From Escherichia phage ECO340P2: a DNA stretch of 64,000 bases. The notes below the pieces were generated by a model, which was given only the letters and a program-made list of their open reading frames with translations, ran no database searches and was not told the origin of the DNA. The number at the start of each line of letters is the position of its first letter. Within the stretch, counting starts at the first letter, position 1. Of the stretch, positions 2,865 through 16,460 are shown one piece after another. The stretch lies in the sequence record OP172792; one strand, 5' to 3'. The position numbers and the translations under genes are program-made.

Positions 2865-2896
2865 GCTGTCTATCCTCTTCCTATTGCGTTTAATGG

Positions 2897-2910: not shown

Positions 2911-2920
2911 TGCTTATGGT

Positions 2921-3157
2921 TTATTGATTGATGTTATGATGAAAGTTATTTTCTTCAATAGCTTTTAAAATAAAAGCCGTGATCGCTTTCGTGTCTACTT
3001 GTTCGAACGTATCAGAATAACACCAATAATAATCATCCCCTACTTTAGGCGGGTAAACTTGGACAAGGAGATCGCCACCTGGTTGATCTATAAGCTCAAC
3101 ATGCAAGCCGGATGATTCGGCGGTTTTAACGGCGTGTAATACTGTTGCTATACTCAT
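2921..3157 (-). CDS. hypothetical early protein
   Basis: ORF with AAAGGGAAAG RBS. Confidence 0.55.
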   Translation of the reverse strand: MSIATVLHAVKTAESSGLHVELIDQPGGDLLVQVYPPKVGDDYYWCYSDTFEQVDTKAITAFILKAIEENNFHHNINQ

Positions 3158-3177
3158 AATCTTTCCCTTTCTGATGT

Positions 3178-3193
3178 GGGGCGTTGCCGCCCC
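3178..3193 (-). promoter_or_regulatory. leader hairpin GGGGCGttgcCGCCCC
   Basis: hairpin of repeated family. Confidence 0.45.
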
Positions 3194-3201
3194 TTTGTTG
3201 A

Positions 3202-3501
3202 TTAGATCGCTGTTTCCAGTAGTTCGGCTAACGTTTTACCGCCTGATAGTTGGTCTAATGTTTGCTCTTCTGGCAAGAAATTAGCGGACACTAAACCTAC
3301 TTGATCCCCTTTGTGCCAATTAGCCTGGCGGGTGATGCCATCCTTCAAAGATTTTATCGCCATAGTGCAACCATCGCCAAATGATTCATTTTTATGATCC
3401 ATCACTTCATAAGCGCCCAGCTTGCTACTGTTAGGTACCATTAACATAAATACATCACCAACAATCAGTTTTTCTACGGTAATAATAGCGATAGTTTCCA
3501 T
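3202..3501 (-). CDS. hypothetical early protein
   Basis: ORF with GAGGAAAG RBS. Confidence 0.55.
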   Translation of the reverse strand: METIAIITVEKLIVGDVFMLMVPNSSKLGAYEVMDHKNESFGDGCTMAIKSLKDGITRQANWHKGDQVGLVSANFLPEEQTLDQLSGGKTLAELLETAI

Positions 3502-3519
3502 TTTACTTTCCTCATTATC

Positions 3520-3576
3520 GGCGGCACCATTGCCGCCCTACGTGGTAAATATTAGCACACTGGCGATCTGTGTCAA
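3520..3576 (-). promoter_or_regulatory. early promoter + leader hairpin unit (TTGACA-N16-TAATAT; hairpin GGCGGCAccatTGCCGCC 3520-3537)
   Basis: canonical copy of the module. Confidence 0.65.
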
Positions 3577-3582
3577 TACTTT

Positions 3583-3969
3583 TTATTCAATATAAATCAA
3601 ATTATCTTCACCAATGTAAGCCGACACGTTCGGCATAAACTTAGCTGCATTGGTTAGGCGGTTGGCTGTGTTAGTGGTGTATATTTCAGGGCGATCCCAA
3701 AAGCCTACGCCGTGACCGTTACGGGTAAAATGTAAATCATTCCCGATCTGGTTGGCTGTTGCGCCGTCGCTCATTGCCTCAGAGATAGCGGCAAGATTAG
3801 CATTAATAAAGGCTGTTACATCCTGGGCGATCCGTTGATCTGCGCTAGGAGAAAAATCATAATCGTCTAAGTTATCAATAAAATTACCTTCATGATCCCT
3901 TGCTGATTCAGCAAAAATAAAGGCTTCTTTATAGCCGTTGATGATTTCAATAATGATTTCTGTTTTCAT
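3583..3969 (-). CDS. hypothetical early protein
   Basis: ORF; start overlaps stop of upstream gene (translational coupling). Confidence 0.55.
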   Translation of the reverse strand: MKTEIIIEIINGYKEAFIFAESARDHEGNFIDNLDDYDFSPSADQRIAQDVTAFINANLAAISEAMSDGATANQIGNDLHFTRNGHGVGFWDRPEIYTTNTANRLTNAAKFMPNVSAYIGEDNLIYIE

Positions 3970-4181
3970 GCTGTACGCTCGACAATAATAATAGTTTGCG
4001 GGATCTCGTTTTCTACTACTAACAAGGCTTTTTTCTGTGTGATAGATATTTTAACACGTTGTAAAGTAGCGGTAAAATCTTTCATTTCATTATGCGCGGA
4101 TTTAGTACAATGCCAGATCTCAGGCTTACCAACTTGTAAGCCGCGTAAAAATTCCGTTTTGCCTGTTTTGTTCGTGATCAT
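3966..4181 (-). CDS. hypothetical early protein
   Basis: ORF; ATG at 4181 with TAAGGTGA RBS (track uses GTG at 4190). Confidence 0.5.
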   Translation of the reverse strand: MITNKTGKTEFLRGLQVGKPEIWHCTKSAHNEMKDFTATLQRVKISITQKKALLVVENEIPQTIIIVERTA

Positions 4182-4191
4182 TTGTTTCACC

Positions 4192-4296
4192 TTAACCGAT
4201 ACCGTGGGAAGATAGGATCATATTAGCCATAGTTGCAACTACTCCAACCGATAACGCCAGGCCAACCACTGCAACCGTGAAAATTTTCTCTAACAT
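4192..4296 (-). CDS. small hydrophobic membrane peptide (34 aa)
   Basis: track ORF 4192..4395 trimmed; its upstream part runs through the leader hairpin and promoter; hydrophobic sequence. Confidence 0.4.
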   Translation of the reverse strand: MLEKIFTVAVVGLALSVGVVATMANMILSSHGIG

Positions 4297-4314
4297 GATT
4301 CTACCCTCATTAAT

Positions 4315-4377
4315 GGGCGTTGCACCATTGCCCCGCCCTACGTAATACACTTTACTAGATAACAAATTATTGTCAAG
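4315..4377 (-). promoter_or_regulatory. early promoter + irregular leader hairpin unit
   Basis: TGTCAA at 4372-4377 (minus-strand TTGACA); hairpin with enlarged loop containing caccattgcc. Confidence 0.5.
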
Positions 4378-4379
4378 CT

Positions 4380-4517
4380 TTATTTTACTTCCCAAACGGA
4401 AAATTCGCTGCCTGTTGGGATCATTTTTTTAATCTTGTTTGCTGCCGCTACCAGGTCAACGGCTTGTACTGTAATAATATAACCAATTGTCGAGGCTGTT
4501 GCGTTGAAAGTTTTCAT
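4380..4517 (-). CDS. hypothetical small early protein (45 aa)
   Basis: hand-translated ORF below track size cut-off, sits in a gap between genes. Confidence 0.4.
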   Translation of the reverse strand: MKTFNATASTIGYIITVQAVDLVAAANKIKKMIPTGSEFSVWEVK

Positions 4518-4536
4518 TATATTGCCCTTTAATACA

Positions 4537-4554
4537 GGCGGGATTAATCCCGCC
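4537..4554 (-). promoter_or_regulatory. leader hairpin GGCGGGAttaaTCCCGCC
   Basis: perfect palindrome 7 nt after stop of upstream gene. Confidence 0.45.
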
Positions 4555-4561
4555 TTTTTGA

Positions 4562-4732
4562 TTACTCTTCATTATCGCCGTTATAGTATTCAATGCCGTT
4601 TTCATCGGTTACGGTGATGTTAACGCCACCGATAGCAACACGATCACGGGCAAACGTCATAGCTTCATTTAAATCTTCAGACCAAAAAATATTGTGACCT
4701 TTGCGCGATACATAAAACATAGTCGGGATCAT
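4562..4732 (-). CDS. hypothetical small early protein (56 aa)
   Basis: track ORF 4562..4816 trimmed to ATG after leader hairpin. Confidence 0.5.
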   Translation of the reverse strand: MIPTMFYVSRKGHNIFWSEDLNEAMTFARDRVAIGGVNITVTDENGIEYYNGDNEE

Positions 4733-4755
4733 GATTTGTTTCTCTTCTGTTATGA

Positions 4756-4816
4756 GCGGTGGACCATTCCGCCGCCCTATGTGGTAAACTTTACTACGTT
4801 GTTTGCCTGCTGTCAA
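4756..4816 (-). promoter_or_regulatory. early promoter + leader hairpin unit (variant hairpin GGCGGtGGACCAttCCGCCGCC)
   Basis: TGTCAA at 4811-4816; hairpin variant. Confidence 0.5.
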
Positions 4817-4817
4817 A

Positions 4818-5102
4818 CTATTTTTTAATGTTTTGCCCTACAAAATCGATCACTTCCTTAAGCTGTCTCTCTGTCATGATCGTACCTGGTAACTCTTCTT
4901 TAATTTCTTCCGGTAAATAGATATTACCGCGCCAGGTTAACAAACAACCGTTTTGATCTTCGCAGATAGAATAAGAAAACATCCACTCGCAATCATTTTC
5001 AAGCTCCCAAAAACACAAAAAGTCTTCTTTCCCTAAGTTTTCAACGGTTAAACATAATCCGCGACGTGCTGCATAATTAGTTAGGCTTTTTGTGATTTTC
5101 AT
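4818..5102 (-). CDS. hypothetical early protein
   Basis: track ORF trimmed to ATG 5102 with AGAAGAGAGAAAAA RBS. Confidence 0.5.
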   Translation of the reverse strand: MKITKSLTNYAARRGLCLTVENLGKEDFLCFWELENDCEWMFSYSICEDQNGCLLTWRGNIYLPEEIKEELPGTIMTERQLKEVIDFVGQNIKK

Positions 5103-5123
5103 GATTTTTCTCTCTTCTTGTGA

Positions 5124-5179
5124 GCGGCACCATTGCCGCCCTACAAGATACATATTACCAGATTAAGCGGACTTGTCAA
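5124..5179 (-). promoter_or_regulatory. early promoter + leader hairpin unit (hairpin GCGGCAccatTGCCGC)
   Basis: TGTCAA 5174-5179. Confidence 0.6.
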
Positions 5180-5300
5180 ACTATTTTTTCTTTTTCTTTG
5201 CTTTCAATCGTCTAAGGTTACGGCTGGACTTATTGCGCAAGGCGCTTAGATCGTCGTACCCTTTCCATGCTTGCATATCTTTCGGATTCATGTTATCCCC

Positions 5301-5462
5301 TTACTTGTTAGCCGGATCATATACCAGGACCGCGCCGCTTGCTTTCACGCTTTCCGCTTCATAGTTGCGCAGATCGTTTTCTGTAAGATTGAGCGCGATC
5401 ACTTCCTCGATCTCAACGCCAGCGGCAAGGGCGATCTCTTTGATAATATCTGTTGTTTTCAT
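5301..5462 (-). CDS. hypothetical small early protein
   Basis: track ORF trimmed to ATG 5462 with AAGGTG RBS. Confidence 0.45.
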   Translation of the reverse strand: MKTTDIIKEIALAAGVEIEEVIALNLTENDLRNYEAESVKASGAVLVYDPANK

Positions 5463-5472
5463 GGTGTGCACC

Positions 5473-5592
5473 TTATAAGATGATTGATAAGATAGTGACA
5501 ACGAAAGCGATTATACTGATGGCAAATGTCATCTTTTTACCTTCGGATACTGCCGGATTTTCTACCGTGTATTCTACTGTGTACTTGCTCAT
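5473..5592 (-). CDS. small hydrophobic membrane peptide (39 aa)
   Basis: hand-translated ORF below track size cut-off; hydrophobic C-terminal half. Confidence 0.4.
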   Translation of the reverse strand: MSKYTVEYTVENPAVSEGKKMTFAISIIAFVVTILSIIL

Positions 5593-5614
5593 CGTGTAAT
5601 CCTCTCGTTTGCTT

Positions 5615-5677
5615 TGGGAACTATTCCCGCCGCCCTATGAATTAAATATACACTATCTCAAAATGATTGCAAGCCTT
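5615..5677 (-). promoter_or_regulatory. early promoter (TTGCAA-N16-TATATT) + leader hairpin GGGAActaTTCCC
   Basis: read on minus strand. Confidence 0.5.
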
Positions 5678-5690
5678 TTTCTAAATTATT

Positions 5691-5975
5691 TTATTCAGTA
5701 AACAAACCATCATTTACAACGGCGGCGATGATCTCCCGTGCCATTGATTCAGGGAAAGGGGCGCTATAGTCCTGGCTTGTCTCATCGGTATCGGTGATCC
5801 AATGATAAGCTAACGAGTAAAAGCCTTTACTAACTGTTTTCAGTGAGATGATGATCACTCGGTCAAGCTTATTGGTGAATGTTGCCGTTAATGTGTTACC
5901 CTCCTGCGTCATGTTGGACAAGTAAGCGAGATCATTAATCAGGGAAAACATTAGCACGGTGTTAGCTTTACTCAT
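5691..5975 (-). CDS. hypothetical early protein
   Basis: track ORF trimmed to ATG 5975 with GAGGA RBS. Confidence 0.5.
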   Translation of the reverse strand: MSKANTVLMFSLINDLAYLSNMTQEGNTLTATFTNKLDRVIIISLKTVSKGFYSLAYHWITDTDETSQDYSAPFPESMAREIIAAVVNDGLFTE

Positions 5976-6005
5976 GATTGCATCCTCAAAGGGGCGCGGC
6001 ACCAT

Positions 6006-6060
6006 TGCCGCCCTACACGATAACTATAACACAATGTAAAACAGGGTCAACCTTTATTTT
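6006..6060 (-). promoter_or_regulatory. early promoter (TTGACC-N16-TATAGT) + leader hairpin
   Basis: read on minus strand. Confidence 0.55.
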
Positions 6061-6253
6061 TCCACGGTGTCAGCTTGTTAATCATTGGTGATAAATAGCG
6101 TTTACCAACGTAAAACAGTACGCCAACTGATGCAACGGCGGCGACCTCATGCATAGCCGACGGGAAACGGGTATCATAATAAGATCCAATAATAGCAATA
6201 GCGGCAACGGCTGCAACGTCGATAATGATTTTCTCTTGTTTTGCGGTGATCAT
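6047..6253 (-). CDS. small membrane protein
   Basis: hydrophobic segment AAVAAIAIIGSYY; RBS AAAAGG. Confidence 0.5.
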   Translation of the reverse strand: MITAKQEKIIIDVAAVAAIAIIGSYYDTRFPSAMHEVAAVASVGVLFYVGKRYLSPMINKLTPWKNKG

Positions 6254-6275
6254 AGTATTTACCTTTTTGTATGGT

Positions 6276-6332
6276 GGGGAACTATTCCCCGCCTGATGTA
6301 ATACAGTTTAACAGGTCCGGTTATGGTGTCAA
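6276..6332 (-). promoter_or_regulatory. early promoter + leader hairpin unit (GGGGAActaTTCCCC)
   Basis: TGTCAA 6327-6332. Confidence 0.55.
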
Positions 6333-6338
6333 CCACTT

Positions 6339-6524
6339 TTAAAGATATTTTATGCTAATGACGTTTTCAGGTTTTACCTTGTTATGATGTGCATCAACAT
6401 AGATCAAACCATCGTCAGAAAAGCCCAGGATCACGCCCTGCGCGATAAAACCGTACTCGTCACGGTAACGCACGGCTATTTTTAATGTTGCGTTGTAGGC
6501 TGTTTTAAGCTCGTTTAAAGTCAT
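6339..6524 (-). CDS. hypothetical small early protein
   Basis: ORF with GAGGATAAACAAAA RBS. Confidence 0.5.
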   Translation of the reverse strand: MTLNELKTAYNATLKIAVRYRDEYGFIAQGVILGFSDDGLIYVDAHHNKVKPENVISIKYL

Positions 6525-6543
6525 TTTTGTTTATCCTCTACAT

Positions 6544-6571
6544 GTAAAAAGAAAGGGCGCTTGATGCGCCC
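6544..6571 (-). terminator. intrinsic terminator/attenuator (GGGCGCatcaaGCGCCC + TTTCTTTTT) between two co-directional early genes
   Basis: GC stem plus T-run on minus strand. Confidence 0.55.
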
Positions 6572-6579
6572 TTGTTATG

Positions 6580-6726
6580 TTAATCCTCTAAATCCATCCA
6601 ATTATATTTGTCACTCTTCCCGCGCTTTGTTTTATTACGCTTGTCACCTTTGCGGATCACTTCCTCGTTCCAGGCCTTGCGGATCTTGGAAGATTGAATT
6701 TTTTCTGCGCGATTAGATGTATTCAT
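6580..6726 (-). CDS. small basic protein (48 aa)
   Basis: hand-translated ORF; Lys/Arg-rich. Confidence 0.4.
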   Translation of the reverse strand: MNTSNRAEKIQSSKIRKAWNEEVIRKGDKRNKTKRGKSDKYNWMDLED

Positions 6727-6746
6727 TTTGTTTCCTCTTTATATGA

Positions 6747-6799
6747 GCGGCACCATTGCCGCTATATTGTTAATTTAAACTGTTTTGTAAAATTGTCAA
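6747..6799 (-). promoter_or_regulatory. early promoter (TTGACA-N16-TAAATT) + leader hairpin
   Basis: read on minus strand. Confidence 0.6.
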
Positions 6800-6805
6800 G
6801 GTTTA

Positions 6806-7159
6806 TCATTCATAAGAGCAAGCAAGGATCACGCCTGCAATATAAAGCCAATAATTTTCCCTTTCTCGTTGGATTTTATCATCGCTGCTATTCTCTTTAA
6901 TGTATCCCCAGGATGTTAACAGGCGATCAATTTCCCAATATTCGAAAGCGATATTGATATCTGATGGCAAACCTTGTAACCATGATGCAAGTGCTTTAAC
7001 AATACTATAATTAAAACGTGATTGGTTATCAGGGTACCAGTACTCGGAATTAAAACGGCGCATCAATTCCGCGATCTTCTCTTTTTCGGTTGTAATACCA
7101 TAATCATTAAAATCGATAGCGGCAAGGATGTACTCTTTAATTGCATTTTGTGCTTTCAT
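6806..7159 (-). CDS. hypothetical early protein
   Basis: ORF with AAAGAGAGAAAGACC RBS. Confidence 0.55.
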   Translation of the reverse strand: MKAQNAIKEYILAAIDFNDYGITTEKEKIAELMRRFNSEYWYPDNQSRFNYSIVKALASWLQGLPSDINIAFEYWEIDRLLTSWGYIKENSSDDKIQRERENYWLYIAGVILACSYE

Positions 7160-7178
7160 GGTCTTTCTCTCTTTTTGA

Positions 7179-7235
7179 GCGGGAACTATTCCCGCCCTAC
7201 GTGTAACAGTTTACTGAAAATTAAATCCGTGTCAA
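7179..7235 (-). promoter_or_regulatory. early promoter (TTGACA-N16-TAAACT) + leader hairpin GCGGGAActaTTCCCGC
   Basis: read on minus strand. Confidence 0.6.
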
Positions 7236-7238
7236 GCT

Positions 7239-7460
7239 TTATTTTGTTACTACCATTTGGTACCCTGTTTCAATGTTAGTAAATACTGTTATCCCGTCCT
7301 GGCGTTCACTCATTAGCATACAAGGCGCTAACATCCTTTCTACTGCCTTGCACTCATTGTAAACGGCGGTTATGTCTCCTGCGGCCTTGTCTTCTGTGGT
7401 GAATGTATCGTTTACGTAAACCTGACCAGCGACAACGGTGACAATAGCGAAAGTGATCAT
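7239..7460 (-). CDS. hypothetical small early protein
   Basis: ORF; shares RBS and first 5 codons (MITFA) with gene 7535..7702. Confidence 0.5.
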   Translation of the reverse strand: MITFAIVTVVAGQVYVNDTFTTEDKAAGDITAVYNECKAVERMLAPCMLMSERQDGITVFTNIETGYQMVVTK

Positions 7461-7493
7461 GGTGTTTCCTTGTTAGTAGTGGTTTCTCTTCTC

Positions 7494-7532
7494 TATAGCG
7501 CCCATTGTAAGGCGCTATAACGAAAAGTCAAC
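7494..7532 (-). promoter_or_regulatory. promoter TTGACT-N16-TACAAT embedded in a hairpin (TATAGCGCC/GGCGCTATA)
   Basis: -10 lies in the loop of a 9-bp inverted repeat. Confidence 0.45.
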
Positions 7533-7534
7533 GA

Positions 7535-7702
7535 TTATTTTTTAAGGCTTAAAGTACCTAACTTGTCAGCATGACGCAGACCAGGGAAGATCCATTTGCC
7601 TGACTCATCTTTCACCGGGGCTTTAAGCGTAGCGCCCAGGTTGGCGGCGTTAACTTTACGTGCAACGTTGCGAGCGGCTTCACGGGTAGCGAAAGTGATC
7701 AT
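7535..7702 (-). CDS. hypothetical small early protein (55 aa)
   Basis: hand-translated ORF below track size cut-off. Confidence 0.4.
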   Translation of the reverse strand: MITFATREAARNVARKVNAANLGATLKAPVKDESGKWIFPGLRHADKLGTLSLKK

Positions 7703-7726
7703 GGTGTTTTCCTCTTCTCTTTGTTA

Positions 7727-7788
7727 GGCGGTGGACCATTCCGCCGCCTTGATGTAATACAGTTTACTTTATTTTATTAAGATTGCAA
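7727..7788 (-). promoter_or_regulatory. early promoter (TTGCAA) + variant leader hairpin
   Basis: same hairpin variant as 4756-4776. Confidence 0.5.
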
Positions 7789-7794
7789 GCGGTT

Positions 7795-8010
7795 TTATGA
7801 AATAATTGTCAAAGTAAAATCATAAGACTGATTTAATTTATATTGTACTTTATTGCCGTAGTAGTCACCTTTACGTAAAGATCCGCGAATACCTATCACA
7901 TCCTTTACATCTTTAAGACTTTTTACGCCTGTAATGTCTTTATTGAAATACTCGTCATCTGAAAATAAAACTTGACTTGCATTTTTTAACAGTGTGCGGA
8001 TATTAGCCAT
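7795..8010 (-). CDS. hypothetical small early protein
   Basis: track ORF trimmed to ATG 8010. Confidence 0.5.
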   Translation of the reverse strand: MANIRTLLKNASQVLFSDDEYFNKDITGVKSLKDVKDVIGIRGSLRKGDYYGNKVQYKLNQSYDFTLTIIS

Positions 8011-8031
8011 CGTGATAATCTCTCTTCTTGT

Positions 8032-8089
8032 TGGCGGCACCATTGCCGCCCTACGTAATACAGTTTACTCTTTTTCTTTCCAGTGTCAA
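8032..8089 (-). promoter_or_regulatory. early promoter (TTGACA-N16-TAAACT) + leader hairpin GGCGGCAccatTGCCGCC
   Basis: canonical copy. Confidence 0.65.
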
Positions 8090-8098
8090 CAATCTTTT

Positions 8099-8326
8099 TC
8101 AGATTATTTCATCCAGGCATAACAGGCGATCAACGTTGAGATCGGTTAGGCTGATGGTTGGCACCTGGTAGGATTCGATGTACTCAACACTAGCCCATTG
8201 CCCGAAATTAGCGACCGCCCAGCTATTCAAGGAAGATTGCAGATCATCCCCTTTCTTCTCGGTGATAACTGCTACTGTCTGGAAGTTGCCAACGGTGCCG
8301 GATACGCGAACAATAATGATAGCCAT
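8099..8326 (-). CDS. hypothetical small early protein
   Basis: ORF with AGAAGAGAGAAA RBS. Confidence 0.55.
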   Translation of the reverse strand: MAIIIVRVSGTVGNFQTVAVITEKKGDDLQSSLNSWAVANFGQWASVEYIESYQVPTISLTDLNVDRLLCLDEII

Positions 8327-8350
8327 GATGATTTCTCTCTTCTGTTAGGC

Positions 8351-8405
8351 GGGGCGCTTGTCGCCCCTATGTGATACATTTTACACTAATTTAAAACGTT
8401 GTCAA
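8351..8405 (-). promoter_or_regulatory. early promoter + leader hairpin GGGGCGcttgtCGCCCC
   Basis: TGTCAA 8400-8405. Confidence 0.55.
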
Positions 8406-8414
8406 CTGCTTTTA

Positions 8415-8654
8415 TTACATTCCAACCATTGCGGCGCGGATACTGGATTTACTGAACTTGTAACCGTCTGGCGTTTTATCTTGTCCAGTTTGTTCCAGAA
8501 ATAACATCATATGACGGGCTGCATCATTACGATTAGTATTAGCGTCGATAAACTCTTTCGCCAACCGATATAATGACTCATCGTTATTAATCCAAAGGCT
8601 TACATTCCAATGAGTTTTATTTTTGTGACCTAAGAACATTTTTGATTTAGCCAT
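8415..8654 (-). CDS. hypothetical early protein
   Basis: track ORF trimmed to ATG 8654 downstream of leader hairpin. Confidence 0.5.
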   Translation of the reverse strand: MAKSKMFLGHKNKTHWNVSLWINNDESLYRLAKEFIDANTNRNDAARHMMLFLEQTGQDKTPDGYKFSKSSIRAAMVGM

Positions 8655-8688
8655 GATGTTAATCTCTTTTTCAGTGAGGCGGGAACTA

Positions 8689-8747
8689 TTCCCGCTCTCG
8701 ATGTAAAACATTTTACGCTTTTTCTTTCTGTTGTCAATGCTTTTTAT
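8689..8747 (-). promoter_or_regulatory. early promoter + leader hairpin GCGGGAActaTTCCCGC
   Basis: TGTCAA 8742-8747. Confidence 0.55.
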
Positions 8748-9109
8748 AAATCTTTTTTACGTTTAACATCGCTTGCATGACTGTATACAGTGATCCCATT
8801 GTCACGGCAAAAACGGGAAAGATATGTGCCGCGTGAAAACTCCTTGCCTTCAAGGTTGATAACCTTGCTAAATTCTTCCAGGGCGACGGTATCAAAATGA
8901 TCACCATAACCATATTGAAACGGAACGTTAACCACTTGAATCAATTTACCGCCGATCTCAACGTCAACCATTAAAGAAAAATATGTGTTACCGTAGGACT
9001 GTTGAAACCAGCGACGGGCGCTAATATGCACCGCCTCAATGCTGGATAGTTCAATTTTAGCAGTATTAGCCAAGGTAGCATAAGCGGAAACATTGATATT
9101 AATAGCCAT
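8744..9109 (-). CDS. hypothetical early protein
   Basis: ORF with AAAAGG RBS. Confidence 0.55.
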   Translation of the reverse strand: MAININVSAYATLANTAKIELSSIEAVHISARRWFQQSYGNTYFSLMVDVEIGGKLIQVVNVPFQYGYGDHFDTVALEEFSKVINLEGKEFSRGTYLSRFCRDNGITVYSHASDVKRKKDL

Positions 9110-9129
9110 GATGATAACCTTTTATTGTT

Positions 9130-9186
9130 GGCGGCACCATTGCCGCCCTACGTGATAAACTATACCAGAATTTTAAATAGTGTCAA
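9130..9186 (-). promoter_or_regulatory. early promoter + leader hairpin GGCGGCAccatTGCCGCC
   Basis: TGTCAA 9181-9186. Confidence 0.65.
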
Positions 9187-9192
9187 ATGTTT

Positions 9193-9555
9193 TTATTCGT
9201 AAATTTTGCCGCTTTCTACCCATACCGTAACACGGCGCATATTATCCCAAGTGTCTTGATCCAAGTTTAAGCCGTGCAACTCTTCGGTACTTCCCAGACC
9301 AGGTACCGCCTTGTTGTAAGTTGCATATAAGCGCCCTTGATACTCATACGCCAGGGTGAGATCCGTTTGAATCATCTTTTTAAGCATAGCGTTAAGCATC
9401 ATATTAGCGGCATGTTGATCACGTTTTAGCGGTAACATGTCAATAAGGGCGCGATAAGCTGAAATATGAATATCAACCGTTTCACGTGGTAAATTTTTCA
9501 TATCATCGCGGAAAGATACCAGATTAAACATGATAGTATTGATTTGCTTGCTCAT
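9193..9555 (-). CDS. hypothetical early protein
   Basis: ORF with AAAAAGGG RBS. Confidence 0.55.
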   Translation of the reverse strand: MSKQINTIMFNLVSFRDDMKNLPRETVDIHISAYRALIDMLPLKRDQHAANMMLNAMLKKMIQTDLTLAYEYQGRLYATYNKAVPGLGSTEELHGLNLDQDTWDNMRRVTVWVESGKIYE

Positions 9556-9566
9556 TGTGTTACCCT

Positions 9567-9627
9567 TTTTTGTTTTGGCGGGGAAGTATTCCGCCGCCCT
9601 ATGTGATACATCTTATCAGATTAAAAA
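9567..9627 (-). promoter_or_regulatory. early promoter (TTGACA-N16-TAAGAT) + leader hairpin
   Basis: read on minus strand. Confidence 0.6.
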
Positions 9628-9658
9628 ACGTTGTCAAGAATATTTTTAAAAATAATTT

Positions 9659-9940
9659 TTAGCTATATGATCCGCACCGCTCGCAATAGTGATCATCGTC
9701 GTCATCTGCCACCTGGCTGATAAAGTGATCAACCTTCATTTTCAGGTTATTATAATTGTTTTCAACTTCTTTTAATCTTTCTTGGTAGTATTCCAGGGCT
9801 TCAACATATGCCGCCTCAGCCGTTTTTTCACGCATAGCTAAATTCATGCCGCGCGTATCATCGTACAGCCAAAAACCATCAGTGCATTCACTCATTGAAA
9901 GCGTAGGGCTTAACTCTTTATGACTAATTACCTTGCTCAT
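9659..9940 (-). CDS. hypothetical early protein (C-terminal CxxC)
   Basis: track ORF trimmed to ATG 9940. Confidence 0.45.
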   Translation of the reverse strand: MSKVISHKELSPTLSMSECTDGFWLYDDTRGMNLAMREKTAEAAYVEALEYYQERLKEVENNYNNLKMKVDHFISQVADDDDDHYCERCGSYS

Positions 9941-9950
9941 AGTGTGCGCC

Positions 9951-10055
9951 TTATAGAAGGATTGAAATAACAATTGCTACAGTGATCCACACTGGAACGG
10001 CTAGAATGATAGCGTTAATCGTTCCAACCGTCAAGCTATTTTCTTTATTAATCAT
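9951..10055 (-). CDS. small hydrophobic membrane peptide (34 aa)
   Basis: hand-translated ORF directly after leader hairpin. Confidence 0.4.
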   Translation of the reverse strand: MINKENSLTVGTINAIILAVPVWITVAIVISILL

Positions 10056-10084
10056 TGTAAACCTTTTATATAATTTCACTATGA

Positions 10085-10141
10085 GCGGCACCATTGCCGC
10101 CCTACGTGGTAAATATTATGCTAGTGGCGGCGATATGTCAA
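10085..10141 (-). promoter_or_regulatory. early promoter (TTGACA-N17-TAATAT) + leader hairpin
   Basis: read on minus strand. Confidence 0.6.
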
Positions 10142-10695
10142 AGGCTATTTTCAAAGTTTTCTAGCGCGATCCTTTTTTCTTCCTCTGTCGGCTGATAATC
10201 AGGAAAAGCATCAATACACAACAACGGCGGGATCTCTTCGTACTCTTCCTCTTCCGTTGTCTCCTCGTCTTCCTCCTGGGCTATGGCTGCAATTTTGGCT
10301 AATTTTCTTTCAGCTTGAATCAGTTTACCATCAAGTACATTTTTTGCCATGTTGTAAGCGGTCCAGGTGATGCGCTTATTTTCCAGGGCTTCATCAAGCG
10401 CCGCTATCTTGCTGGGATATTCATCAAGGACACGAAAAGCCGGATCAACCTTGTACAAAGGATTATCTTTCGCGCCGTCGCTAGGATCTTCCGCACTGGA
10501 TAAATCAGCGTTACCATTTGCCAGCCAACCAGGGCGCACATGACGCGCTTTTACGTTGCCGTTACTACGTGCTAACCTGTTACCTATTTGCTCACCACTA
10601 TAGCCCGTTGATTCATCGACAAGATGATCGGGAATGATGCGCGGATCATCTGCCTCATGCTTTACCCAAGACTGGATCACATATTCACGCCCCAT
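10138..10695 (-). CDS. hypothetical early protein with acidic stretch
   Basis: ORF; ATG 10695 with AAGGTGG RBS; EEDEETTEEEEYEE run. Confidence 0.55.
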   Translation of the reverse strand: MGREYVIQSWVKHEADDPRIIPDHLVDESTGYSGEQIGNRLARSNGNVKARHVRPGWLANGNADLSSAEDPSDGAKDNPLYKVDPAFRVLDEYPSKIAALDEALENKRITWTAYNMAKNVLDGKLIQAERKLAKIAAIAQEEDEETTEEEEYEEIPPLLCIDAFPDYQPTEEEKRIALENFENSL

Positions 10696-10696
10696 A

Positions 10697-10954
10697 TTAA
10701 CCACCTTTTTTCAACAATTGACATACTTTAAAAAGACTTGCGGAATCCTTGCAAGGGTAGAAAGATGTACGATAGTCACGTACGCCAACCTTGCGGATCT
10801 CGATGTTCTCGCATGTTGTTTGATCAAAGATATTTATTTCATCACGCCCCCTTATATAAACATAGTGAGGATGGATCAAAGCATACTTAGCTAATCTGTA
10901 AAAAGCGTTATCTTTGAACGCGATCACGTGACCTTTTAACTTGATGTAAAACAT
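10697..10954 (-). CDS. hypothetical early protein
   Basis: ORF with TAAGGTGA RBS. Confidence 0.55.
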   Translation of the reverse strand: MFYIKLKGHVIAFKDNAFYRLAKYALIHPHYVYIRGRDEINIFDQTTCENIEIRKVGVRDYRTSFYPCKDSASLFKVCQLLKKGG

Positions 10955-10978
10955 TTTGTCACCTTACAAATAGCGGGA

Positions 10979-11034
10979 ACTATTCCCGCCTTATGCAACA
11001 TATTAGTAAATTATTCGCTAATGTCAAGCCTTAA
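10979..11034 (-). promoter_or_regulatory. early promoter + leader hairpin GCGGGAActaTTCCCGC
   Basis: TGTCAA 11029-11034. Confidence 0.55.
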
Positions 11035-11303
11035 AGCAAAAATGCTACATCTTGCGCTTTTAGTGTAGTGTCAACCATTTTCGGGCTTTTATAATCAACA
11101 AACCGCGCGGTTTTTTCAATAGCGAAACCTAAATAATCTTGCTTGTTGAAATTACATTCTTTCTTAAATGTTTCCCGCGCCACGGCGATCGCTGCGTCCA
11201 GGGATAAACGACCATCAATATTAATATTAGCGAAAGATCCGCCACCGCTCATAGGTTTACCAGTGGTGCCAGTTACAATCATTGTTGCGCTATATGATGC
11301 CAT
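11031..11303 (-). CDS. hypothetical early protein
   Basis: ORF with AGAAGAGAGAAAAA RBS. Confidence 0.55.
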   Translation of the reverse strand: MASYSATMIVTGTTGKPMSGGGSFANINIDGRLSLDAAIAVARETFKKECNFNKQDYLGFAIEKTARFVDYKSPKMVDTTLKAQDVAFLL

Positions 11304-11326
11304 GATTTTTCTCTCTTCTGTTAGGC

Positions 11327-11382
11327 GGGGCGCTTGTCGCCCCTATGTGATACATCTTATCAGGTTGTTGCCTGTTGTCAAT
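11327..11382 (-). promoter_or_regulatory. early promoter + leader hairpin GGGGCGcttgtCGCCCC
   Basis: TGTCAA 11377-11382. Confidence 0.55.
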
Positions 11383-11387
11383 ACTTT

Positions 11388-11585
11388 TTATTCAAGCCCT
11401 ACGATATGCAAAACACGGCGATCAGCAATAGCGTGCTGGTCTTCTGTTATAACGCACATTTCTACCAGTGAATCAAGAAAGGAAAGCACAGTAATATATT
11501 CGTCATCGGGTACACTCATTTCATTAGTACCGTTTACCATTACGTTGATTTGTCCTGCTTTCGCTACAATGTGCAATGTTGCCAT
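11388..11585 (-). CDS. hypothetical small early protein
   Basis: ORF with GGAG RBS. Confidence 0.5.
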   Translation of the reverse strand: MATLHIVAKAGQINVMVNGTNEMSVPDDEYITVLSFLDSLVEMCVITEDQHAIADRRVLHIVGLE

Positions 11586-11780
11586 GATCTTAACTCCAGG
11601 TGATAAATGATGTTTTTGTTTGTTGACGGTGGATTATGGAGATCCTCACCTTTGCCCGTCCTACATTGCACCCTCCTGTTGTTTATTGTCGTTGTGCCTC
11701 GCCCCCCTCGACAAGATGAATACTACGCTACCCCCTGGCGAACGTCAATCACTTTTCAATCTTTTTCATTTCTTTTTTGC

Positions 11781-11809
11781 TTGCTATCTATAAAGGAAAG
11801 GGCTATTAT
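11781..11809 (+). promoter_or_regulatory. sigma70-like promoter TTGCTA-N17-TATTAT
   Basis: hexamers read directly. Confidence 0.45.
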
Positions 11810-11856
11810 CTTTCTACCGCGCCAACCAGGGCGCACAACAAAGAAAGGGCGACACC

Positions 11857-12120
11857 ATGACTACTACATTACATCTTATGCACTCGTTAGGCTGGCAAGG
11901 CGGCACGGTGCACCAAGTAGCAAGCGCAACGGGCTTAAAGGTTGAAACCGTGCTTACCCTGGGCGATCATAAGGTGGAAGAGATAGACCATTTTGATCCG
12001 TTTGCTGATGGTTATTTGTGGGCGCTCAGTGGCGGCGGGGAAAGCAAGATCCCGCCAGGGGCGCGGGGCGATATGTATTTTTGGTTAGGTGTCCTCTCCT
12101 GGCAAGAAAACAAAAAATAA
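11857..12120 (+). CDS. hypothetical protein in GC-rich island (possible moron)
   Basis: 87-aa ORF with AAAGGG RBS; local GC clearly above flanking DNA. Confidence 0.35.
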   Translation: MTTTLHLMHSLGWQGGTVHQVASATGLKVETVLTLGDHKVEEIDHFDPFADGYLWALSGGGESKIPPGARGDMYFWLGVLSWQENKK

Positions 12121-12122
12121 TC

Positions 12123-12151
12123 TTGACAAGCCCAGGGATCGGGCTTATACT
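12123..12151 (+). promoter_or_regulatory. sigma70-like promoter TTGACA-N17-TATACT
   Basis: near-consensus hexamers; no credible ORF downstream. Confidence 0.55.
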
Positions 12152-12378
12152 GCTTTACATACAGAAGAGGAAGCGCCACCCCACGGCGTAAAGGCGGGGC
12201 TAACATACCAGGGCGCTGGTTGGAAGGTTGATCGCCGGGAGGCTGGACGCTATACATTTGTAAAGAAATGTAAAGACTAAAATAATTGCTTGCTTTCCAG
12301 GGTAGATCTGTTATTCTTATTACATGGCGAGGGGACACGGGAGCGCGAGACAAACACCACTCCTGCGCGTCATTCCCT

Positions 12379-12541
12379 AAATGAGAATGATTATCATTTA
12401 CCTTCTTAAATAAGAATCAATCTCATTTGAGTAGTTGAATGAGAATCATTCCTATTCGCAAAGTGAGAATAAGTCTCATTTACAACATTAAATGCGAATC
12501 AATCTCATTTGCATTTACATATGAGAATTGTTCTCATTCTC
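12379..12541. repeat. six palindromic iteron/operator-like sites (approx. AAATGAGAAT-N3-5-TCTCATTT)
   Basis: sites at about 12379, 12409, 12437, 12460, 12488, 12519; the last (ATGAGAAttgTTCTCAT) is a perfect palindrome. Confidence 0.6.
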
Positions 12542-12560
12542 ACCTGCATAAAAATTTTTG

Positions 12561-12600
12561 TAAACTTTAAATTTTGCTTTTGTACTTTCATTTTTGTAAA
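12561..12600. repeat. AT-rich 40-bp direct repeat, copy 1
   Basis: about 35/40 identity with 12700-12739. Confidence 0.55.
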
Positions 12601-12699
12601 AGCAAAAAAACTTTAAATACTGTGGGCGCGCAAAATTTTTAAAATTTTCCTTGACTTTTAAGTCTTATTCTTGTATGTAACATTTTAAGATAATTTTCC

Positions 12700-12739
12700 T
12701 AAACTTTAAATTTTGGTTTTCAACTTTCACTTTTGTAAA
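12700..12739. repeat. AT-rich 40-bp direct repeat, copy 2
   Basis: about 35/40 identity with 12561-12600. Confidence 0.55.
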
Positions 12740-12888
12740 TTCTTAAAAAGTTTAAATAATTTGAGGAATTTTTGAGATAACAGATAGTGAGAATTTGAGA
12801 TAACCTTTAATCTTGTTGGTAAACCTTCAGGAACCCATCTAGATCAAATCCTAGCGATGCAAACTGAAAAGATAAGTGTTCGTATAGG

Positions 12889-12933
12889 ACAAAATAATAG
12901 GCTCTCTACAGTGCTGTAGGAGCCTTATTTCTG
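12889..12933. terminator. bidirectional intrinsic terminator (AGGCTCtCTACAG-tg-CTGTAGGAGCCT flanked by T-runs)
   Basis: 12-bp stem with T-rich tracts on both strands; downstream of the leftward operon ending at 12990. Confidence 0.6.
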
Positions 12934-12989
12934 TGCTACAAAGTGACACCTTTGTTTTAAAAATGAAAAAAGTTAAAATATCACAAATA

Positions 12990-13523
12990 TCATCTTTGCG
13001 GTATTTTGTCTGGGAAAAGTATTTCTATCAGCTTGTTATGATATTTACCTAAAAGATTCTGCCCTTTCCAGGTGGCAGGGTTTAGCACCCCTGGTTCATA
13101 CATCCCCATTCCAATTCCGTATACCTTATCGTAAGGACTTGCTTCAACAAATGTTTTGTATTGATATAGACGTAAATCGGCATACAAGTCTGGATTCTGT
13201 ACATACTTCAAGCATAAGCCTCGCATTACAATACGCTCACGATTCTCTTCCCATACTTTGTTATCGAAGCCAGCTACTGCCCTACCCATACGTTTGTAAT
13301 AAGCTTGTATCTTCTCATCTTCTCGTTTTAAACTATGAGTCAGAATAGCCTGTGCAGTGCTGTGGTCATTAAAAAGCAAAGCTTTACGCCACATCATATA
13401 TTGTTCTACACAGTTAAATGTTTCATTGTATCCTAGCTCCGTCTCTGTAAATGGTGCAAGATACCAATTACTAAACACATCTTTATGTGAAAAGAAGAAT
13501 ACATATTCATCAGTTATTCTCAT
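12990..13523 (-). CDS. NADAR (YbiA-like, DUF1768) domain protein; putative ADP-ribosyl/N-glycoside hydrolase
   Basis: recalled YbiA-family pattern: FFFS..FSNWY..PF, EQYMMWRKALLF, YYKRMGRAV, C-terminal LGKYHNKL; AGGAGG RBS. Confidence 0.7.
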   Translation of the reverse strand: MRITDEYVFFFSHKDVFSNWYLAPFTETELGYNETFNCVEQYMMWRKALLFNDHSTAQAILTHSLKREDEKIQAYYKRMGRAVAGFDNKVWEENRERIVMRGLCLKYVQNPDLYADLRLYQYKTFVEASPYDKVYGIGMGMYEPGVLNPATWKGQNLLGKYHNKLIEILFPDKIPQR

Positions 13524-14077: not shown

Positions 14078-15279
14078 GTTTCCTCCTGTAATGTTCCACC
14101 ATAAAGTTTATAAATATTTTGTATTGATGCCATGCAAGATAACTCCACTGTCTCTGTGTAGCCATCTGGCATAGAATATTTGCTCACTGCTTCCGTGTGA
14201 AGGACACGCTTACAACGCTTTTCTGCATCTTTGCATTGCTTCACAGTAGGGAAGTGCCACACTTGGCTCTGTTTCATAGTAAACACATTACGACTATTTT
14301 GTTCTTTGATACGGCGATTACTATTATTAGCAATACCAAACTTCAGTGCACAGATAATATCTTGCTCATCGTAAATATAATTAATGTAGGCTTGTTGTTG
14401 ATTCATACCTGCACAACCAGGGCAACCACACCCCTTATTTAACCAATTGTTAGCACTACACACATGTTTCCCATGATCCTTGCAACCATATTCAAAATCC
14501 CCAAGTATAGAAGCTTTCCCGATCCACCCCAACCACACGTACCCTCTACGTTCTACGTCACTTTTTGCTCTAAATGTCACCTCTTCTTCAGAATATTTGT
14601 AACTGGCAGAACAACGACAAGGGCGCATACCCTGTTTTAATGAACTACCTCTACCGATAAAATATCCCGTTCCTACCCCAGCTTTGGAAAACTCATCTAT
14701 AGCACAGATAGGGCAAAATACACTCCAAAGTATTTCGCTCCTCCCAGCTTTTTCCCCTGTATTAGTGAAGGTAGTGCCTTCGGGAAACACACCCGTACTC
14801 ATGAAATCTTGTATGTGCTGATCGTCTGAAAGCTTATTGTGTTTACCTATACCCTCTAAACGACAAACTGGACAACCTTGTTTATTATTCTTAAAGTTGT
14901 CTATGGTAGATGTGTTAAACTCGTGACCCCTATCACAACGTAAGATTACTCGTGTCTTTTTAGCTTTCAGCCATTCTCCGTAGATACCCAAGAAGCGCCA
15001 ACCTCTTTTTAACGCTTCTTCTTCACACTCTTTCTCTTGGTCCTCTCTGCTCTTCGTTCTCTTCTCCCTTTTTGTTAATTCACCACAAGAAGGGCAAGAC
15101 TTCCCACTTTTAAAGTTAGATATTTTACAAGTATCCCATACACCGTGCACAGGACATTCTATCAGGAGTTTAGTCTCACACCCTTTCCATTCTTTATGGC
15201 CTAAAATTTTATATCCTTTAGAGAGAGCTATGATCTCGCATTCTGCTTTATATTCTTCCCAACTTTTAGCTTTACTCAT
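14071..15279 (-). CDS. Cys-rich protein with three tandem zinc-ribbon-like repeats
   Basis: three repeats of C-x-x-HG-x-[WF]...NF...G-x-x-CP-x-C (CPVHGVW..CPSCG; CDRGHEF..CPVCR; CKDHGKH..CPGC). Confidence 0.55.
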   Translation of the reverse strand: MSKAKSWEEYKAECEIIALSKGYKILGHKEWKGCETKLLIECPVHGVWDTCKISNFKSGKSCPSCGELTKREKRTKSREDQEKECEEEALKRGWRFLGIYGEWLKAKKTRVILRCDRGHEFNTSTIDNFKNNKQGCPVCRLEGIGKHNKLSDDQHIQDFMSTGVFPEGTTFTNTGEKAGRSEILWSVFCPICAIDEFSKAGVGTGYFIGRGSSLKQGMRPCRCSASYKYSEEEVTFRAKSDVERRGYVWLGWIGKASILGDFEYGCKDHGKHVCSANNWLNKGCGCPGCAGMNQQQAYINYIYDEQDIICALKFGIANNSNRRIKEQNSRNVFTMKQSQVWHFPTVKQCKDAEKRCKRVLHTEAVSKYSMPDGYTETVELSCMASIQNIYKLYGGTLQEETC

Positions 15280-15320
15280 GATTTCATCCTATAAGAAATG
15301 CCCCTTGCGGGGCATCTTTA

Positions 15321-16460
15321 TTAGAACACGCTACCCAGTGTGGTGGAACGTTGTGTTACAGGCTCCAGCACCACTCGCAGAGTGTTTCCTGGCGTAGTGC
15401 TCATAACCAGAATCTTACCACCTTCAATCAGATCACAAGTTAGACCATCAGCCGTTGCACATAGATCAATATGTGGATCACCATCTTCATCTAGGATAAC
15501 ATAACTATTGGTTTCCATTGCTTCCACTTCATCATCTTTCAAGCTTTGTAGATAGATGTTCAGGGAACAAGCACCCGACAAAAACTTAGTAGGGGTAAAG
15601 TCGTGCCAGTTATTGATCCAATTCACCTTCAGGGTTTTGCCATTAGCTACGATAGAAGCCACATTCCATTTAGCATCGTTGCCTAAAGAAATACCCATCA
15701 TTTCAAGACATTCTTTAAAAGTCATTTTTGGATAGAAATTCAATTCTTCTACAATGCCTTGAATAACATCGAAAGACAACTCTGTGCTAACATCCCATAA
15801 ACGTTGGAAGTTATCTACGTGCTTTTTATTTACCAAGTTCTTATCTAAGTAATCTAACATAGTTTCACTAGACAGTTTATCGTAATTGAAACTGTAATAG
15901 ATACGACTAGGACGGTTTACAAAATATTCCGAGATATAACCACTATTTTTAGTGAGGATGTAAAGTTTATTCCCACTTCCTGTTCCATCCAACAAGGTCA
16001 ACAGTGCTTCCTGATCTTCTTTCTTAGCGTACACTTTATCAAATTCGTCAAATAAAACAACAGCACGATCTGTAATTTTACTCATAAATTCTAAGAAGCC
16101 AGCATCTGTGTAAGGCTGTGTAACCAAAATGGTTGGAATACCTAAACCTTCTGTGGACATTAGAGACATGCTAATTAGTTTAGCTAACATCGTCTTACCA
16201 CTGCCTTTTGTCCCTGTCAGTAACACTCCAGTATTTTTACCTTCTTTACTACGACGAGCAAATGTTTTAATAACATGTGCGGCGCGGTCTTTAGTTTCCC
16301 CATAAAGAGTGTTCGGAAGAGAGAAACTTTCACCACGCACTAAAGAGTAGTTACCGTGCGGATCGCAGTTGACAACCCAAACTCCAGCAGGAAGTTTATT
16401 AGCTTCAACGCCATATTCCTTATTTACAACAGCGACATCTCCAAAAATAGTGTATTTCAT
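15321..16460 (-). CDS. AAA-type ATPase
   Basis: Walker A LLTGTKGSGKTMLAKL and Walker B VVLFDEFDK. Confidence 0.7.
   Translation of the reverse strand: MKYTIFGDVAVVNKEYGVEANKLPAGVWVVNCDPHGNYSLVRGESFSLPNTLYGETKDRAAHVIKTFARRSKEGKNTGVLLTGTKGSGKTMLAKLISMSLMSTEGLGIPTILVTQPYTDAGFLEFMSKITDRAVVLFDEFDKVYAKKEDQEALLTLLDGTGSGNKLYILTKNSGYISEYFVNRPSRIYYSFNYDKLSSETMLDYLDKNLVNKKHVDNFQRLWDVSTELSFDVIQGIVEELNFYPKMTFKECLEMMGISLGNDAKWNVASIVANGKTLKVNWINNWHDFTPTKFLSGACSLNIYLQSLKDDEVEAMETNSYVILDEDGDPHIDLCATADGLTCDLIEGGKILVMSTTPGNTLRVVLEPVTQRSTTLGSVF

Follow-up and report, generated by a model that had tools for sequence, protein, structure and literature searches.

The ferric-uptake regulator (Fur) is a dimeric, Fe2+-dependent repressor, and its classical operators, made of one to three overlapping boxes, overlap the -35 and -10 elements of the promoter that is repressed. 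Among phage elements, the transcription-activated lambda origin (ori) consists of four dyad iterons and an AT-rich region, the T7 primary origin combines tandem promoters with an AT-rich region, and the T7 early promoters A1–A3 serve host transcription that pulls the genome into the cell. Here, we analyzed an array of six palindromes in a 64,000-nucleotide stretch (the window, meaning this whole stretch) of Escherichia phage ECO340P2 (sequence record OP172792), a Phapecoctavirus, that is, a phAPEC8-like E. coli myovirus of the subfamily Stephanstirmvirinae with a ~150-kb genome; many database records are 90%–94% identical to the window. By their sequence the palindromes belong to the Fur-box family, in an atypical placement and with Fur binding predicted, and we propose with moderate confidence that they may act as host Fur operators gating a conserved cis-acting boundary region.

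For phage T5, whose injection stop signal (iss) is compared with the array below, a preprint review lists palindromes and repeats in the region, for which it can offer no guess at a function, and the calculated shear point of first-step transfer that it gives, 9618, falls inside the palindrome/repeat region; a 2026 preprint on T5 gives no mechanism. Both Fur operators and the injection stop of T5 are well known, and our literature search found no paper connecting the two. An earlier note on this DNA had read it either as a transcription-activated replication origin or as a regulatory hub with several operators for a dimeric DNA-binding protein. To this we add the match with the Fur box of the host, the connection with the injection stop of T5, and the position ~8% from the genome end.

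A conserved array of six palindromes

The six 21-bp palindromes, of the form tAAATGAGAAT-S-ATTCTCATTt, start at 12379, 12408, 12437, 12461, 12490, and 12519 (as 19-mers, at 12380, 12409, 12438, 12462, 12491, and 12520), with successive spacings of 29, 29, 24, 29, and 29 bp. Site 6 is a perfect 7+3+7 palindrome (ATGAGAA-TTG-TTCTCAT). The earlier note had described six imperfect palindromes of about 20 bp, spaced by roughly 25–30 bp in a non-coding gap and ending in a perfect one, and all of this was borne out. A search with the pattern AATGAGAATNNNTCTCATT, allowing up to three mismatches, returned 13 strand-matches in 64 kb, 12 of them the six sites read on both strands, and shuffled sequence gave a mean of 1.44 matches and a maximum of 6. 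Scores in the following list are from a matrix of 22 published Acinetobacter baumannii Fur boxes, which is independent of the phage sites.

12379–12399, no strand: Fur-box-like palindrome 1, AAATGAGAATGATTATCATTT, 26.2–26.3 bits, the best in 64 kb
12408–12428, no strand: Fur-box-like palindrome 2, 16.6–16.8 bits, 29 bp from site 1
12437–12457, no strand: Fur-box-like palindrome 3, 19.8–19.9 bits
12461–12481, no strand: Fur-box-like palindrome 4, 15.7 bits, first of the second block
12490–12510, no strand: Fur-box-like palindrome 5, 13.7 bits
12519–12539, no strand: Fur-box-like palindrome 6, the perfect 7+3+7 palindrome, 16.5–16.6 bits

Palindrome 1, which is kept in all relatives, shares 16 of 19 positions with the E. 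coli 19-mer consensus in one register. The segment 12454–12511 is 79% identical to 12372–12429, and sites 4–5 therefore appear to be an old tandem copy of sites 1–2.

Arrays of one to six sites were found at the equivalent position in all 11 relatives examined, spanning Phapecoctavirus, Justusliebigvirus, Klebsiella relatives, Certrevirus, and Seunavirus, always after the promoters P1 and P2 (listed below) and before AT-rich direct repeats. Conservation in related phages, a check that the earlier note had suggested, is thus syntenic throughout, and the 3–10-kb loci of the relatives held no further matches outside the array. Site counts were as follows.

anhysbys and phAPEC8: 3 each
tuntematon: 4
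phiWec188: 6
Paula (Justusliebigvirus): 4
phi92: 5
two Klebsiella Stephanstirmvirinae: 3 each
Certreviruses CR3 and P7_Pc: 4 each
Seunavirus SalP219: 2
Seunavirus-like Salmonella phage R7: 1

When 45 sites of 12 phages were combined in a logo (tAAATGAGAAT-S-ATT(C/A)TCATTt), the sites carried 1.2–2.0 bits per position, as against <0.5 for the spacers. Symmetric positions within the palindrome vary independently (at pair 7/15 of the 21-mer, complementarity was 0.50 observed versus 0.60 expected), which argues for selection on two protein half-sites in duplex DNA. A function as hairpin, cruciform, or RNA stem was rejected, since symmetric positions are complementary just as often as expected if the columns were independent. 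The array is real, non-random, and strongly conserved.

Beyond the immediate relatives, a survey of spacings in the window, T5, phi92, one further relative, and IMG/VR loci showed that T5-like and phi92/rV5-like arrays favor certain centre-to-centre distances between neighboring sites, with clusters at 17, 23/24, 29, 35, 46, 53, and 58; array spacing appears quantised in 6-bp steps, most spacings being 5 modulo 6. Among the matches listed, >120 IMG/VR viral contigs carry AATGAGAATNATTNTCATT, and unplaced metagenomic contigs hold clusters of 3–5 sites with other spacings (43/39; 22/34/34), often near contig ends, which may be where repeats break assemblies. Salmonella phage R7 (PQ002170) is labelled Demerecviridae and carries a conserved segment of the Seunavirus type; its record ends in 80-bp "attL/attR" repeats that lie ~70 nt from its single Fur-like box.

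The palindromes match Fur boxes

The phage sites have the very consensus published for the Fur boxes of Xanthomonas campestris, AATGAgAATcATTctCATT, and share the 9-1-9 frame of the published A. baumannii Fur boxes, which include TTAAATGAGAATCATTTTCATTTAT. Compared with the E. coli consensus GATAATGATAATCATTATC, the window sites match at 12–16 of 19 positions in shifted registers. A literature search on the half-motif retrieved mostly papers on iron regulation.

Recognition was found in both directions between the phage sites and bacterial operators. A matrix built from the six window sites only was run on 77 kb of E. coli K-12. Six of its seven top matches in the 27-kb ent-fep cluster fell in the fepA|fes, fepD|entS, and fepB|entC intergenic regions, which make up 726 of the 27,001 bp (2.7%), and no other intergenic region of that stretch scored. 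On a separate 50 kb, the best match was TATAATAATCATTCTCGTT, 54 nt upstream of fhuA. The promoters of fhuA, fepA-fes, fepD-entS, and fepB-entC are established members of the E. coli Fur regulon. In the other direction, the A. baumannii Fur matrix placed the six palindromes at ranks 1–5 and 8 in the 64 kb (13.7–26.2 bits) and gave 12–20 bits to the E. coli operator matches, so that by sequence the phage sites at least equal the host operators. They are also more perfectly symmetric and higher-scoring than the host operators examined. The palindromes have the 19-bp inverted repeat that defines a Fur box (9-1-9, or 7-1-7 with the core TGATAAT-N-ATTATCA) together with this two-way matrix recognition.

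The second-best match of the window-site matrix in the 50 kb of K-12 was ATTGAGAATCATTCTGAAT, at 44582–44600 of that K-12 segment, between map and tff-rpsB. The aerobactin operator presumably contains AATGAGAATCATT, which was not counted as evidence. Among other regulators considered, the ARG box, the KdgR and UvrY sites, and the RcsAB box (at 14 bp, and with the wrong spacing) are not known to fit the 7-1-7 frame.

Promoters and other elements of the gap

The array lies in an 870-bp non-coding gap (bounds 12121–12989), whose elements and adjoining plus-strand gene are as follows.

11857–12120, plus strand: syntenic 87-aa gene (phrog_19316), the only plus-strand gene in this part
12123–12151, plus strand: promoter P1, TTGACA-17-TATACT, 11/12 to the sigma-70 consensus, directed toward the array
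12152–12289, plus strand: conserved non-coding segment 1, with invariant GCCACCCCACGGCG-AAA-GGCGGGGCTAAC and the repeat TTTGTAAAGA..TGTAAAGA
12290–12317, plus strand: promoter P2, TTGCTT-16-TATTCT with TG extension, read from the sequence
12318–12378, plus strand: conserved leader from P2 to the array, ACATGGCGAGGGG..CGCGAGACAAACACC.., near-invariant across subfamilies, with indels that break reading frames
12553–12763, no strand: AT-rich direct repeats, two 72-nt copies with period 139 (12553–12624 and 12692–12763, 82% identical)
12900–12933, no strand: bidirectional terminator-like hairpin closing the gap (hairpin 12900–12924, with A-rich and T-rich flanks)

P1 was kept in 10 of 10 aligned relatives and is the sole plus-strand match at 11/12, as well as the sole strong plus-strand promoter, in 1–12200; the array starts ~220 nt downstream of it. 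The TTG of the P2 -35 element and its extended -10 are conserved in the alignment, and the position of the -10 suggests a start near 12324, ~55 nt before site 1. The orientation of both promoters is conserved, and they are the only strong promoters directed inward. The alignment of the conserved segment covered Phapecoctavirus, Justusliebigvirus, the Klebsiella relatives, Certrevirus, and Seunavirus, and the order of units is near-invariant: P1, the invariant segment, the TTTGTAAAGA..TGTAAAGA repeat, P2, the leader, and the first Fur box. The ~255 bp at 12123–12378, with their two sigma-70 promoters, are 70%–90% conserved across Stephanstirmvirinae and Vequintavirinae, far above the flanking genes. 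Pectobacterium phage P7_Pc has a ~190-nt insertion in the conserved segment (1560–1880 of the P7_Pc locus) with a further TTGACA-17-CATAAT promoter and different downstream sequence.

Downstream of the array, 12550–12800 is 72%–84% A+T. Each lineage has two to three direct repeats of 39–79 nt with periods of 63–186 at this place (12541–12900 of the window), and their sequence is lineage-specific; in this they resemble iterons for a lineage-specific protein. A terminator is annotated in phAPEC8 at the position equivalent to the 12900–12924 hairpin. The layout that the earlier note had read here, a near-consensus promoter followed by the sites, AT-rich direct repeats, and a bidirectional terminator, was recovered in the window and is conserved across two subfamilies; the G-rich transcribed segment that it had also described was overstated, as 12158–12379 holds 63 G versus 51 C.

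Neither an RNA structure nor a gene was found that would account for this conservation. Nothing supported a structured RNA in either the array or the conserved segment: Rfam gave no match at the gathering threshold or at E up to 1, the folding z-score of the conserved segment was 0.06, and RNAalifold returned a covariation term of +0.35 with only two compensatory pairs. Coding was likewise rejected. The only long open reading frame (ORF) of the gap, 12012–12353 on the minus strand, had no PHROG or Pfam match, and indels in relatives interrupt an 18-codon ORF that follows P2. In relatives the gap is unannotated or holds only a dubious ORF, with no credible gene in 12121–12989.

To the left of the gap lie the single small plus-strand gene and then, at 950–11600, ~35 small minus-strand genes with ~90-bp spacers, most with their own TTGACA-16-TAnnnT promoter in the spacer. 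We counted 25 distinct strong sigma-70-like promoter sites (≥10/12 to the consensus; 27 scan rows) in 1–12200, of which 21 (23 of the 27 rows) are on the minus strand, that is, the gene strand, and this block looks like a host-takeover early region. The 87-aa protein is syntenic, has a conserved N-terminal segment, and is present in 151 phage records; its AlphaFold model (pLDDT 95) has five helices, with no family match in PHROG or Pfam, no significant fold match, and no match to a DNA-binding fold. To the right, on the minus strand, are genes for a NADAR-domain protein (12990–13523, Pfam E = 1e-35, directly adjoining the gap), an endonuclease-like protein, and an AAA ATPase.

A candidate Fur-gated boundary region

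In an iron-replete cell, Fur-Fe2+ dimers would occupy the six boxes, and the bound array would begin ~55 nt past the P2 start and ~220 nt past P1. The two promoters would fire a non-coding transcript rightward, toward the genome interior, and the array could gate this transcription as a roadblock or by repression. Gating might extend to a DNA transaction in the AT-rich repeats, either replication unwinding or DNA movement. The array region marks the inner boundary of a terminal block, ~12.8 kb by homology, of small early genes with host-type promoters. We infer Fur binding, the blocking of P1/P2 transcription, and the purpose of that transcription.

Several findings favor a host protein as the binder. 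The motif is common to T5-like siphoviruses, 18 proteins of T5 have no homologue in the window, no T5-like phage appeared in the organism tally of the 87-aa protein or among the 40 matches listed, and no Fur homologue was found in the 64-kb window with a query sequence written out by hand. The multi-operator alternative of the earlier note is supported and made specific, by the Fur-box tests and the independently varying half-sites; its origin reading was neither supported nor refuted.

Other observations weigh against Fur gating. The assignment to Fur was made from sequence, and the preferred half-site, GAGAAT in 72% of those examined and not the GATAAT of the E. coli consensus, may belong to a different protein with Fur-like specificity. 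The six boxes are separate and begin ~55 nt past the inferred start, and only a weak minus-strand promoter-like match (TTTACA-17-GAGAAT, 12564–12536, 9/12) overlaps one of them, site 6. Copy number varies from one to six among relatives, which argues against a tightly tuned structure, and the interval from the array to the terminator has no ORF on the plus strand, which leaves no obvious regulated gene.

Alternative explanations

The readings weighed here (Fur operator, origin, delivery pause, phage protein, and decoy) are not mutually exclusive. A transcription-activated origin, at which either a phage initiator or Fur, in the role of a host accessory factor, would bind the array, is in our view unlikely. 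It would form a lambda O-some-like complex beside the AT-rich unwinding region, with P1 and P2 giving transcriptional activation or an RNA primer. Repeated sites do lie beside an AT-rich region with a promoter nearby: two tandem strong promoters and an array of 19–21-bp dyads are followed by 250 bp of 72%–84% A+T with direct repeats, a layout that lambda ori and the T7 primary origin are generally known to share, and the combination of lineage-specific repeats with a conserved layout is expected of iterons that co-evolve with their initiator. The palindromes themselves, however, are the same as the host Fur box and do not differ between phages whose replication genes are unrelated, unlike initiator-specific iterons. 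No DnaA or integration host factor (IHF) consensus was found in the gap, no recognisable initiator gene adjoins it (the neighbors being the 87-aa helical, NADAR-domain, endonuclease-like, and AAA ATPase proteins), and skew does not change at the array, cumulative GC skew turning at ~19 kb together with gene orientation. The G-richness of the transcript is weak, and a preprint argues that the T5 array region is not an origin, T5 replication origins having been mapped near the genome centre. The region has an origin layout of the lambda or T7 type, without an origin-specific feature found.

Another possibility, which we regard as quite unlikely, is a pause in genome delivery like that at the T5 iss, in which the window-start end would enter first with a ~12.8-kb early block, transfer would halt at the array, and the newly entered, inward-directed P1 and P2 would help to pull in the remainder, much as T7 DNA is drawn in by host RNA polymerase. 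When the gap served as query in a sensitive DNA search, the array matched T5-like phages, and the T5 match (9550–9713; 68% over ~170 nt by BLAST) lies inside the feature annotated "injection stop signal (iss)" in the left terminal repeat, where the motif stands in 4–5 copies (e.g., AAATGAGAATCATTATCATTT) and the shear point at 9618 falls within the array. Under the Fur matrix, these copies rank top in the first 12.5 kb of T5. This similarity shows a shared binding site and not necessarily shared descent, because the repeated motif drives the BLAST match. As in T5, a non-coding cluster of AAATGAGAATCATT-type palindromes is followed by other direct repeats. One TTGAGATAA pair occurs both in the window (12772–12801) and near the repeat end in T5; it was taken as chance, as the phi92 gap, the only relative's gap checked for it, has a single copy.

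Position speaks for the same possibility. The T5 array lies at 7.8%–8.0% of 121,750 bp, and the first-step-transfer boundary is at 7.9%. In phi92, of the same subfamily as the window phage, direct terminal repeats of 343 bp are annotated (342 bp and 317 bp have been reported for two related phages), and the five-site array lies 11,528–11,621 bp from the right end of 148,612 bp, or 7.8%. For the window, the following feature gives the anchor.

1–26, no strand: inner edge of the direct terminal repeat, by homology to phi92

The reverse complement of 1–26 aligns with the start of the region of phage anhysbys that is collinear with phi92 DTR-L 1–343 and that, as in phi92, holds two Fur-like boxes. 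Since this counterpart of the phi92 repeat directly adjoins position 1 of the window, we infer by homology that the array stands ~12.8 kb, or ~8.5% of the genome, from the physical end, where as in T5 it bounds early genes with host promoters. The fractional positions (7.9% in T5, 7.8% in phi92, and ~8.5% by homology in the window) are suggestive and not exact. The enclosed block of ~35 small genes, its strong promoters mostly on the gene strand (21 of 25 distinct sites), and the status of P1 and P2 as the only strong inward-directed promoters would also suit such a pause.

The differences are equally marked. A tblastn search with 18 annotated T5 proteins (T5.001–T5.018, including dmp, A1, and A2), which covered 64 kb of the ~150-kb genome, gave nothing below E = 0.2. 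Paired DnaA boxes (IRD'/IRC'), sought as TTWTNCACA in 12100–12990, were absent, with only two one-mismatch chance matches. The array does not stand at the inner end of an 8–13-kb terminal repeat, the repeat being ~343 bp by homology versus 10 kb in T5; the first-entering end is assumed, and a cytoplasmic DNA-binding protein has no obvious means to halt DNA entry. Distances in relatives range over ~11.5–14.7 kb, the upper value from BLAST match positions in one Klebsiella relative, so the 8% agreement may be coincidence. We consider it quite improbable that the Fur-box array is a pause site of a two-step delivery common to T5-like siphoviruses and phi92-, phAPEC8-, and rV5-like myoviruses. If it were, Fur would be the missing T5 stop factor, the ~12-kb block the first-step-transfer segment, and P1 and P2 the drivers of the second step. 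A packaging (pac) site was rejected, since the array is ~12.4 kb from the terminal repeat by homology and so not at the cut site.

Strong Fur-like boxes also occur in or near terminal repeats, so that the early block is flanked by them on both sides. In phi92, further boxes lie 71, 266, 1147, and 1205 bp from the right end (71–290 and 14408–15560 of the stretches examined), anhysbys has them at 425–622, and T5 has one 231 bp from its left end. In the window, an isolated, non-coding Fur-box-like site (689–707, no strand, 15.2–15.3 bits) lies near the terminal repeat. Window 1–950 consists of the inner edge of the repeat and then ~920 bp of non-coding sequence with GTT-rich stretches and a hairpin region conserved with phage BME3 (PP239276). 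The BME3 record ends in a repeat-to-repeat junction plus extra copies of the terminal region, which suggests misassembly at the terminal repeat.

A phage-encoded dimeric protein with Fur-like specificity, for example one that excludes or mimics Fur, is a decidedly improbable binder. The strong preference for GAGAAT over GATAAT would suit it, as would sites more symmetric and higher-scoring than the host operators examined and the small syntenic gene with a conserved N-terminal segment that adjoins the region. The 87-aa product of that gene, however, matches no DNA-binding family or fold, and T5-like phages, which have the motif, are absent from its tally and from the listed matches. Profile comparison with T5 A2 was negative, the window encodes no Fur-family protein that we found, and the site matrix recovers genuine host operators as its top matches.

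Finally, a Fur decoy, in which hundreds of replicating array copies would titrate Fur and de-repress iron uptake, for example for phage ribonucleotide reductase, is very improbable: its sites are several per genome and outscore the host operators examined, and multicopy Fur boxes are generally known to de-repress the regulon (the basis of the FURTA assay), yet a decoy needs no fixed position, whereas throughout the subfamilies the array keeps strict synteny with P1/P2 and with the repeats downstream of it, and some relatives have only one or two sites.

Implications

We return to the preferred reading, in which the palindromes are host Fur operators. By sequence, a dispersed array of strong host Fur boxes, to which binding is predicted, is a fixed genomic landmark in virulent phages. 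If Fur binds, virulent phages of at least three lineages would recruit the host iron sensor at this landmark, a new phage-host coupling; the ~60-year-old puzzle of T5 two-step injection would gain a testable host factor; and phi92-, phAPEC8-, and rV5-like therapeutic phages would have a defined and conserved control region, acting in cis, where annotation now shows only empty space. If Fur does not bind, the array remains a conserved multi-site element common to unrelated phages.

Comparison with known systems

The phage sites have in common with bacterial Fur operators (E. coli, Xanthomonas, and Acinetobacter) the 19-bp 9-1-9 inverted repeat. Host operators place one to three overlapping boxes on the promoter, whereas in this virulent phage six separate, near-perfect boxes extend over 160 bp on the downstream side of the promoters. 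The parts follow each other as in lambda ori and the T7 primary origin (promoters, array of ~19-bp dyads, AT-rich DNA), but the sites in the window are a host repressor box and not a phage initiator site, with no initiator gene adjacent. Like T7 A1–A3, P1 and P2 are strong host-type promoters near one end that point inward; the T7 promoters are ~0.5 kb from the end, and P1 and P2 ~12.5 kb.

The T5 array is inside a 10.2-kb terminal repeat, whereas that of the window is by homology ~12.4 kb outside a ~343-bp repeat. The T5 array adjoins paired DnaA boxes and a nick site, and T5 delivery needs A1 and A2, none of which was found for the window; the conserved P1/P2 segment, in turn, is absent from T5. 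The T5 pre-early block has a layout similar to that of 950–11600 in the window, yet the two have no protein in common. Three features that define the T5 injection stop type (the long repeat, the DnaA boxes, and A1/A2) were sought and not found for the 64-kb window; the array region therefore falls outside that type, but it may work in a similar way. The T5 iss (Repeat Region 3) has the motif of the window, in the form AAATGAGAAT-C-ATT(A/C)TCATT, in 4–5 copies at spacings of 23–58 bp, and both are non-coding arrays, followed by different direct repeats, that stand ~8% from the genome end and bound early genes.

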